Source: a virus (lineage: Duplodnaviria; Caudoviricetes). From it: a stretch of 64,000 nucleotides of DNA. Below are positions 30,295-30,478 of the stretch, piece by piece. Under the pieces are notes generated by a model. The model was not told the DNA's origin. It ran no database searches and worked only from the letters and a program-made list of their open reading frames with translations. The stretch lies in the IMG/VR virus record IMGVR_UViG_3300046804_003398. One strand, written 5' to 3'. Numbering within the stretch: position 1 is the stretch's first letter; every line of letters starts with the position of its first letter. The position numbers and the translations under genes were made by a program.

Positions 30295-30478
30295 TGGTGA
30301 CAGAGTTGGGAATCAAACCCAAACCTCAAGTTTTATTAACTTACTGGAGCTTATCGACATGACAATCATGGGGCTAATACGGTTTGCCTTGGTCGTCGTT
30401 TACATTTACCCAAAATTAATTGGATCATCCCAGCCACAGCTAACTTCTGCAGTGTGCTTTTCATTACACTACTCCGTC
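30295..30478 (-). ncRNA. tRNA-like RNA (184 nt) with ~90 nt structured insert in the anticodon loop
   Basis: Acceptor GACGGAG/CUCUGUC-A-CCA, D-arm GUGU/GCAC, T-arm UUGGG-UUUGAUU-CCCAA, variable hairpin AAGUU/AACUU. Confidence 0.7.

Follow-up and report, generated by a model that had tools for sequence, protein, structure and literature searches.

A conserved phage RNA gene that resembles tRNA-Leu(UAA) and may carry a structured domain at the anticodon-loop position

Small stable RNAs encoded in phage transfer RNA (tRNA) clusters, such as rnaC and rnaD of phage T4, have been known for fifty years. Engineered tRNA scaffolds, in which the anticodon region is replaced, are processed and stable in bacteria (PMC3753655, PMC3401473). 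Here we describe a tRNA-shaped RNA gene, called the element below, in DNA from a virus of the Caudoviricetes (Duplodnaviria; IMG/VR record IMGVR_UViG_3300046804_003398). The whole 64,000-nucleotide (nt) stretch that was analysed is called the window. Its content is that of a phage: over 30 tRNA genes, a transfer-messenger RNA (tmRNA) and a GOLLD RNA are encoded in it. Like T4 rnaC (species 1 RNA, 139 nt) and rnaD (species 2 RNA), the element lies within a phage tRNA array in the same orientation as its neighbours and includes a tRNA-like module. Our favoured reading, to which we give a probability of about 0.55, is that the element is an expressed, unspliced, non-decoding RNA that arose from a class II tRNA-Leu(UAA) and whose tRNA part is a chassis carrying a conserved cargo.

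Conservation of a tRNA-shaped gene

Relatives of the element were gathered by exact-pattern scans of IMG/VR and JGI metagenome contigs. The scans gave 32 loci with 15 distinct sequence variants, 183-197 nt long, all on contigs from freshwater viruses or metagenomes, with lengths up to 248 kb. When a covariance model (R1) was built from the family, it scored 209 bits on the window copy and found a single copy in each phage record searched. The gene is conserved. Between the window and group B, one of the two main groups of variants, the tRNA body is 89% identical and the core of the inserted domain is 91-94% identical; the same 91-94% is obtained between the two main groups for element positions 46-135 without the helix called Pd. 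A preliminary description of the locus had named unconserved, random sequence in the homologues as grounds for dismissing the insert, and at these identities it is not random sequence. The adjacent tRNA-Arg(UCU) is just 71-87% identical among phages carrying the element, and for nearby proteins the identity is 60-78% in other phages with the element (e.g. L003, L112, L123 and L130). Judged by sequence identity, the element is conserved more strongly than both. Strong purifying selection acts on the insert as well as on the CCA end and the top half of the tRNA, which fits the earlier proposal of a tRNA mimic with a functional RNA domain. Length differences among the variants are confined to hairpin loops or to one peripheral hairpin. 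They are not multiples of three; therefore, the region is non-coding, and a peptide reading of the insert (AUG AUC CAA ...) was ruled out on the same ground.

This pattern bears on the simplest explanation for an odd tRNA gene, a decaying tRNA-Leu pseudogene that was broken by insertions and has no function. Such a pseudogene would match the failure of tRNA finders to call the element and a fold that is not unusually stable. We find it hardly credible, given that the element is more conserved than a functional neighbouring tRNA and nearby proteins, that its helices stay paired through base changes and that insertions and deletions occur in hairpin loops only.

The standard tools did not recognise the gene. 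ARAGORN made no call on the 184 nt, even with introns allowed. Rfam left the element uncalled at gathering scores and gave no match to RF00005, with E<=10 also tried. A permissive Rfam search with the element and a group-B copy returned chance-level matches only (icd-II, Plastid-ycf2 and permuted tmRNA, E 0.003-7, far under gathering scores). With blastn against a phage genome collection, the flanking tRNA-Arg was matched and nothing else, and megablast of 16 kb gave no match. Looser pattern scans of IMG/VR and GTDB (one genome per prokaryotic species) gave chance matches only and did not widen the family. Six contigs of Bacteroidota metagenome-assembled genomes that came from the loose patterns were not recognised by R1 and give no host assignment. 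Weak long R1 matches turned out to be part of tmRNA, and a weak R1 match at window positions 33332-33536 has an E of 0.3. No second copy of the insert was found in the window or in any fetched locus.

The body of the element is built like a tRNA (Table 1). A complete acceptor stem with A-CCA, a D arm, a T arm and a variable hairpin, as listed in the preliminary description, were all confirmed on the minus strand at 30295-30478, and so was normal array spacing between two tRNA-Arg genes, with spacers of 4 nt and 1 nt. Both this spacing and the CCA match the pattern of the adjacent tRNAs. The acceptor stem has 7 base pairs (bp; GACGGAG/CUCUGUC, element positions 1-7/174-180) and is 100% paired in the 15 variants, through a compensatory change of C3-G70 to U3-A70 and a change of G4.U69 to A4-U69. 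The earlier remark that there is no G3.U70 pair, and that the element is not a mini-tmRNA, holds in both forms of the third pair. CCA is encoded in 14/15 variants, and the L118 type ends in CUA. The discriminator is A in 11 of the 15 variants and G in the other four. A and G are the discriminator bases that specify leucine and serine, respectively, in class II tRNAs; as a single transition in a small family, the switch proves little.

The D stem is invariant and the D loop is variable (AAUGAAA, AAUGAUU, AGUGAUU and others), with one G only. The T arm is invariant. Because the only G of the D loop is followed by A, and the T loop, UUUGAUU, has U at position 56, the sequences suggest that the elbow is kept by an A19-U56 pair in place of G19-C56. 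The body also retains U8, A14, R15, the U preceding the T stem, U54 and A58, and the geometry of the acceptor and T stems is 7/5. The variable-arm hairpin is 91% paired over the 15 variants; there is a G.A mismatch in group B, and the loop length differs. On the 3' side of the helix called Pa, the order is U136, the 5-bp variable hairpin, GAGGU and the T arm. The element therefore has the 7-bp acceptor stem, discriminator, CCA, and D and T arms for the elbow that a canonical elongator tRNA has, and it lacks the contiguous 7-nt U33 loop on a 5-bp stem beside position 26. Unusual D and T loops are seen in many tRNAs of the window phage.

The inserted domain and resemblance to tRNA-Leu(UAA)

Two additions interrupt this body: an extra hairpin, H, between tRNA positions 26 and 27, and a Y-shaped insert that splits the anticodon loop between U33 and U34 and is closed from outside by the 5-bp helix Pa, the equivalent of the anticodon stem. 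The outline of this secondary structure holds across the family. In the model, 99% of cells are paired, compared to 32-42% after the partners are slid, and RNAalifold independently predicted H, Pa and two helices of the insert, Pb and Pc, from the 15-sequence alignment.

Hairpin H is 19-20 nt long in the relatives, and its stem (27-32/40-45) is 100% paired in the 15 variants. Three of its pairs change on one side yet stay paired (G.U to A-U, C-G to U.G). A 1-nt bulge is present in three variants, and the loop is invariant except for its second base. Within the insert, the Pb loop has 3 to 6 nt and varies in sequence and length, consistent with a hairpin. The stem of Pc is invariant. Helix Pd is variable and covaries, being GGC/GCC (91-93/105-107), GGAU/AUCC or GGAC/GUCC, and it reaches 7 bp in group B.

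These helices correct the earlier fold in several places. An anticodon-stem helix ACUGCAG/CUCCAGU (26-32/130-136) had been proposed; only 73% of its cells are paired, with one pair that forms in none of the variants and a second that is broken in 13/15. Its 3' strand, UCCAG, was correctly placed, while its partner was not: UCCAG pairs with CUGGG at 46-50, and 27-32 pairs with 40-45. After this correction, the placing of a large domain inside a former anticodon loop stands, the loop being that of tRNA-Leu(UAA). The proposed UCCAA/UUUGGG hairpin was likewise supported, with an invariant stem and a loop of variable length. A GG-CAAA-CC hairpin was not, as the covarying helix is instead GGC/GCC at 91-93/105-107, and a CAUG/CAUG hairpin is broken in 5/15 variants.

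Two further contacts were considered. AAGUU of the H loop could pair with AACUU in the variable hairpin, and AAUGU (73-77) with GUAUU (99-103); the small number of base changes observed is consistent with both contacts, and neither has two-sided covariation. The 5' half and loop of H (CUGCAG-AAGUUAG, 30434-30446) resemble CUCCAG-U-AAGUUAA at 30336-30349, which is the 3' strand of Pa and the start of the variable hairpin. This near-repeat may reflect an origin of H in a local duplication, or competition of the H loop for AACUU (147-151). In the Alu domain of the signal recognition particle (SRP) RNA, a UGUNR U-turn sits between two hairpins of a three-way junction. The UGUAA of the element's three-way junction was followed up for this likeness and the lead was dropped, with no match to an SRP model and an unconserved Pb loop.

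The chassis resembles tRNA-Leu. When H (27-45) and the insert (53-125) were deleted, ARAGORN called a class II tRNA-Leu(UAA) with U33 and R37 in 15/15 variants, and the rejoined anticodon loop was AUUAAGC, CUUAAAC or AUUAAAC. When R1 was run against 141 Bacteroidota genomes, nine of the ten best matches were tRNA-Leu, and its best match in the phage T4 tRNA cluster was also tRNA-Leu. In the best cmsearch alignments, the anticodon stem CUGGA/UCCAG, U44 and the variable arm of Bacteroidota tRNA-Leu align to Pa, U136 and the variable hairpin, with H and the inner domain handled as insertions. R26 is able to pair with U136 in all variants, like 26-44 in tRNAs. The reduced sequence is far closer to Bacteroidota tRNA-Leu(CAA) than to any tRNA of the window. 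The long variable arm, A73 (11/15) and the best similarity to tRNA-Leu genes are those of class II tRNA-Leu. The coherent reading of these sequence data is a tRNA-Leu(UAA)-derived gene with two additions, at 33/34 and at 26/27. Among the elements used by leucyl-tRNA synthetase (LeuRS), R15 and the U before the T stem are present, and the D loop has a single G instead of G18G19. For comparison, E. coli LeuRS needs the hinge elements G18G19, A15-U48 and A20a (PMC9976931).

Table 1. Coordinates of the element, its parts and its nearest neighbours in the window. Bracketed numbers are positions in the element.
Feature	Coordinates	Strand	Remarks
tRNA-shaped RNA gene, whole	30295..30478	-	184 nt; relatives 183-197 nt
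Acceptor stem, 5' strand GACGGAG (1-7)	30472..30478	-	pairs with 30299-30305
D arm GUGU / loop AAUGAAAA / GCAC	30454..30469	-	stem 10-13/22-25
Extra hairpin H (27-45), between tRNA positions 26 and 27	30434..30452	-	6-bp stem, 7-nt loop A-R-G-U-U-A-G
Pa, 5' strand CUGGG (46-50), equivalent of anticodon-stem 5' strand	30429..30433	-	invariant
Remnant of anticodon loop 32-33, [A/C]-U	30427..30428	-	
Y-shaped insert (53-125), splits anticodon loop between U33 and U34	30354..30426	-	71-87 nt in relatives
Pb hairpin AUCCAA / loop / UUGGGU (54-59/66-71)	30408..30425	-	stem invariant
Junction strand AAAUGUAAA, between Pb and Pc	30399..30407	-	invariant
Pc-Pd arm: Pc CGACGAC/GUC-AY-GUCG (81-87/116-124), internal loop, Pd with conserved loop ..RUAUUA	30355..30398	-	
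Remnant of anticodon loop 34-38, U-A-A-R-C	30349..30353	-	
Pa, 3' strand UCCAG (131-135), equivalent of anticodon-stem 3' strand	30344..30348	-	pairs with 30429..30433
Variable-arm hairpin, class II type, AAGUU / AAUAA / AACUU	30328..30342	-	5 bp, 137-141/147-151
T arm UUGGG / UUUGAUU / CCCAA	30306..30322	-	157-161/169-173; invariant, U at 56
Acceptor stem, 3' strand CUCUGUC, discriminator A and encoded CCA	30295..30305	-	
tRNA-Arg(UCU), upstream neighbour	30483..30560	-	4-nt spacer between its CCA and the element
tRNA-Arg(CCU), downstream neighbour	30216..30293	-	1-nt spacer from the element
Intrinsic-terminator-like hairpin closing the tRNA sub-array, after tRNA-Cys	29862..29889	-	

Proposed function and alternative readings

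In the favoured reading, the tRNA top half (acceptor stem and CCA, D arm, T arm, elbow and variable arm) would serve as the chassis. Ordinary tRNA-processing enzymes would release the element from a polycistronic tRNA precursor, presumably with RNase P cutting at G1 and with 3' trimming. The product would be a stable, L-shaped RNA with tRNA-like stability, in which the lower arm is replaced by the cargo, namely the 71-87 nt Y-shaped domain at U33/U34 and the 19-20 nt hairpin at 26/27. The loops and junction strands of the cargo most likely create a surface that binds a specific partner, be it a protein, an RNA or a small molecule, because near-invariance is seen in the H loop, in all three junction strands and in the RUAUUA motif of the Pd loop, while peripheral loops vary freely. 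An ordinary class II tRNA-Leu(UAA) is encoded elsewhere in the window (21028-21112, minus strand), where Rfam finds it and ARAGORN misses it. The element is therefore dispensable for decoding there, and it probably does not decode. LeuRS and SerRS do not read the anticodon. An E. coli tRNA-Leu without its anticodon and variable arms was still leucylated (PMC9976931).

Candidate partners were looked for among the neighbours. Pfam and PHROG scans of 39 neighbouring open reading frames turned up no candidate for an RNA-binding partner. A link with GOLLD has no support: GOLLD is present in the window and in the nearest record, G001, and was not found in three group-B fragments, which are incomplete. 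The adjacent methyltransferase is adjacent only in group-A-like phages and was set aside as well. An RNA ligase was also dropped as a linked gene, having been found outside the window only in G001, among fragments that are incomplete.

Several observations weigh against the favoured reading. The search pattern used on the metagenomes fixed 22 bases of the insert. It fixed most of the junction strand AAAUGUAAA, whose invariance is biased for that reason; the strand is invariant too in the IMG/VR matches that came from an unrelated T-arm pattern. The alignment of the 15 variants (A2) has a mean column identity of 89%, a narrow family as sampled. Pa, Pb and Pc are invariant, and covariation cannot confirm them. 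The folding energy is no better than that of shuffled sequences (z -1.3 for the whole element and about 0 for the insert), so that it is conservation and covariation, not folding energy, that speak for a real feature. The expression data, described below, come from contigs of RNA libraries, which are blind to ends, abundance and rare spliced forms and could include DNA carry-over. The remaining points concern the reading of the helices and the residual anticodon loop, and each of them leads to a different explanation of the gene.

The same base pairs also allow another reading, in which H is the anticodon arm and Pa closes a giant variable arm made up of the 90-nt domain. The element would then be a non-canonical tRNA mimic with the anticodon GUU; it would be of the Asn or Tyr type, recognised through its anticodon, and would act off the ribosome or as a decoy. 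After deletion of positions 46-135, ARAGORN called a class II "tRNA-Asn(GUU)" with a loop lacking U33. A single base, A26, joins the D stem to H as in a tRNA, the H loop is almost invariant, and cmsearch aligned the T4 tRNA-Leu with its anticodon arm on H. This alignment scored 21.4 bits, lower than the 33.5 bits of cellular tRNA-Leu aligned with Pa as the anticodon stem, and the latter also explains why U33, UAA and R37 flank the insert. Bacterial tRNA-Asn is class I, and no known identity set combines an Asn anticodon with a class II body, a purine at position 33 and a stem of 6 bp, which is bulged in three variants. Bacterial Asn identity also requires G73 (PMC9976931), and the element has A73 in 11 of the 15 variants. 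On balance we consider this giant-variable-arm structure unlikely.

What is left of the anticodon loop, [A/C]U|UAA-R-C in 15/15 variants, makes a perfect Leu(UAA) loop, as a spliceable pre-tRNA would also keep. In the sampled parts of two group-B phages, a tRNA-Leu(UAG) was seen and an ordinary tRNA-Leu(UAA) was not. These observations suit an intron-containing pre-tRNA-Leu(UAA), in which an unknown endonuclease or self-cleavage would remove the insert, and perhaps H, and a ligase would seal the ends to give a decoding tRNA. Introns of bacterial tRNAs have their classic home in tRNA-Leu(UAA). The 5' flank ends in U as in the group I introns of cyanobacterial and plastid tRNA-Leu(UAA), which also lie in the anticodon loop of the same type of host gene, and the window encodes an RNA ligase (44598-45617). 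The differences from those introns are considerable. They sit at 34/35, have 200 nt or more and end in G, whereas the element's insert sits at 33/34, has 71-87 nt, which is under half the length of even the smallest group I introns known, ends in A and has no group I core.

The known signatures of introns are absent. Neither the insert nor the element matched a group I intron (RF00028 included), a group II intron or a small ribozyme in Rfam at E<=10. No bulge-helix-bulge can be drawn, as both borders abut Pa and neither 54-57 with 127-130 nor 51-54 with 124-127 can pair. The context is of the bacterial type (tmRNA and tRNA arrays), compared to the archaeal and eukaryal setting of protein-spliced introns. 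Contigs from four metatranscriptome libraries, from at least two studies, contain the full unspliced element joined to its neighbours, and no spliced joint was seen in the contigs of those libraries. In the RNA-library contigs of run X4, 30399-30465 is uncovered at a depth of about 3, from which no conclusion was drawn. The suggestion of a protein-spliced intron in the preliminary description is unsupported by these results, and the element is probably not spliced. An intron would also leave H at 26/27 in place or need a second splicing event, its insert sequence is conserved far past the need of mere excision, the window already carries a tRNA-Leu(UAA), and the RNA ligase was not found in the group-B fragments, which are incomplete. 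Altogether, a pre-tRNA that is spliced to a decoding tRNA seems very unlikely. A related idea is a new kind of phage tRNA intron: some unknown nuclease, or else a tiny ribozyme, would cut out the insert (and maybe H), and the phage RNA ligase would seal a working tRNA-Leu(UAA). We give it very little credence; if it were true, the supply of tRNA-Leu(UAA) would hinge on a splicing step controlled by the phage. The ligase itself (minus strand) has a Pfam RNA_ligase domain and a PHA02142 OB fold, with a 96% identical copy in G001, and a GmrSD_N-like protein at 42692-43957 adjoins it.

An RNA ligase near a phage tRNA array is also reminiscent of the arms race of tRNA cleavage and repair, which is established for PrrC, Pnkp and Rnl1 in T4. 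The element could be a decoy or sponge for a host defence nuclease that targets tRNA, or for a tRNA-binding factor, with the tRNA body as lure and the altered anticodon region trapping or resisting the enzyme. This idea is in keeping with a gene that lies among phage tRNAs, has an intact tRNA top half and is accompanied by a ligase nearby. No tie to any particular nuclease and no co-occurring gene were found, and a decoy has no need of an elaborate three-way insert with a conserved sequence. We judge a decoy quite improbable.

Neighbouring genes and comparison with known systems

The element stands in a co-oriented run of tRNA-Arg, the element itself and tRNAs for Arg, Thr, Thr, Gln and Cys. 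Other tRNA-like genes in the window also escape annotation. Besides the tRNA-Leu(UAA) mentioned above, tRNA genes at 31373-31443, 31204-31274 and 20334-20404 (minus strand) were found by Rfam and not called by ARAGORN. At 32854-32955 (minus strand), a tRNA-shaped gene that ARAGORN misses (Rfam tRNA, 43 bits) has an anticodon stem, GUGCU/AGCAC, that encloses 37 nt and not 7; it has AUGAU..GGUAAAUG in common with the insert of the 184-nt element. Three uncalled tRNA-like genes lie in a row at about 33580-33875 (minus strand). One is class II and like tRNA-Tyr, with the loop CUGUAAA and the T loop GGAGCAUUACC. At 33672-33759 there is an 88-nt gene with an acceptor stem of 8-9 bp and a weak tRNA-Sec match (27 bits), and at 33766-33864 an RNA of about 100 nt is closed by a terminal stem. 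The GOLLD RNA (206 bits; 26471-26938, minus strand) has a tRNA-like gene embedded at 26797-26872. In a group-B phage (L175:3684-3759), ARAGORN called a tRNA with a 4-base anticodon (CUCU) between tRNA-His and tRNA-Arg. A PhoH-like ATPase (186 bits) is encoded at 15708-16418 (minus strand), upstream of the region that holds the tmRNA and the tRNAs. RNAs such as the element go unnoticed in standard tRNA and Rfam annotation, and tRNA finders under-call the RNA content of the tRNA arrays of giant phages.

In a limited search of the open-access literature, we found no description of a phage RNA derived from tRNA-Leu with a cargo in the anticodon loop. Two known kinds of RNA were compared with the element and rejected. 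The ends of the element form an acceptor stem and not the Ro-binding stem of YrlA and Y RNAs, there was no match to RF02553, and no TROVE protein was found among the open reading frames scanned. Its 7/5 geometry is not the 8/4 or 9/3 of allo-tRNAs (PMC5389517).

The likeness to tmRNA (RF00023) is greater, as this too is tRNA-like with a large domain at the anticodon site, and phages of the element's group encode a tmRNA as well. The element differs from it in having no G3.U70, a full D arm, no tag frame, no series of pseudoknots, about half the size and no RF00023 match. Bacterial class II tRNA-Leu(UAA/CAA) (RF00005) shares with the element the 7/5 geometry, the long variable arm, A73 (in 11/15 variants), the equivalent of R26-U44, the stem CUGGN/NCCAG and U33, UAA and R37. 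In contrast to these tRNAs, the element has an anticodon loop interrupted by 71-87 nt, the extra hairpin at 26/27, no G18G19 and U56.

The closest natural counterparts in setting are T4 rnaC and rnaD. The 3' end of rnaC is a tRNA-like module of acceptor and T arm, with a weak match to R1 (13.6 bits). The non-tRNA parts of the T4 RNAs have no sequence homology with the element, and the extra RNA of rnaC consists of a 5' extension and a changed body and does not interrupt an anticodon loop. Unlike the two T4 RNAs, the element has kept its D arm complete, together with a variable arm and a CCA end that is encoded. The T4 RNAs appear to be natural examples of tRNA scaffolds, and the element is a clean, strongly conserved example in which the ancestry from tRNA-Leu(UAA) and the two insertion points are directly readable. 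If such chassis RNAs are a general route by which phages obtain functional small RNAs through the tRNA processing of the host, they could make up an overlooked class of phage regulators or counter-defence factors. The design of the element, a folded RNA in the anticodon or variable region of a tRNA, is that of the tRNA scaffolds of Ponchon and Dardel (PMC3753655, PMC3401473) and of aptamer-tagged tRNAs (PMC7590224). Those scaffolds are man-made, whereas the element, a conserved phage gene, would be their natural counterpart.

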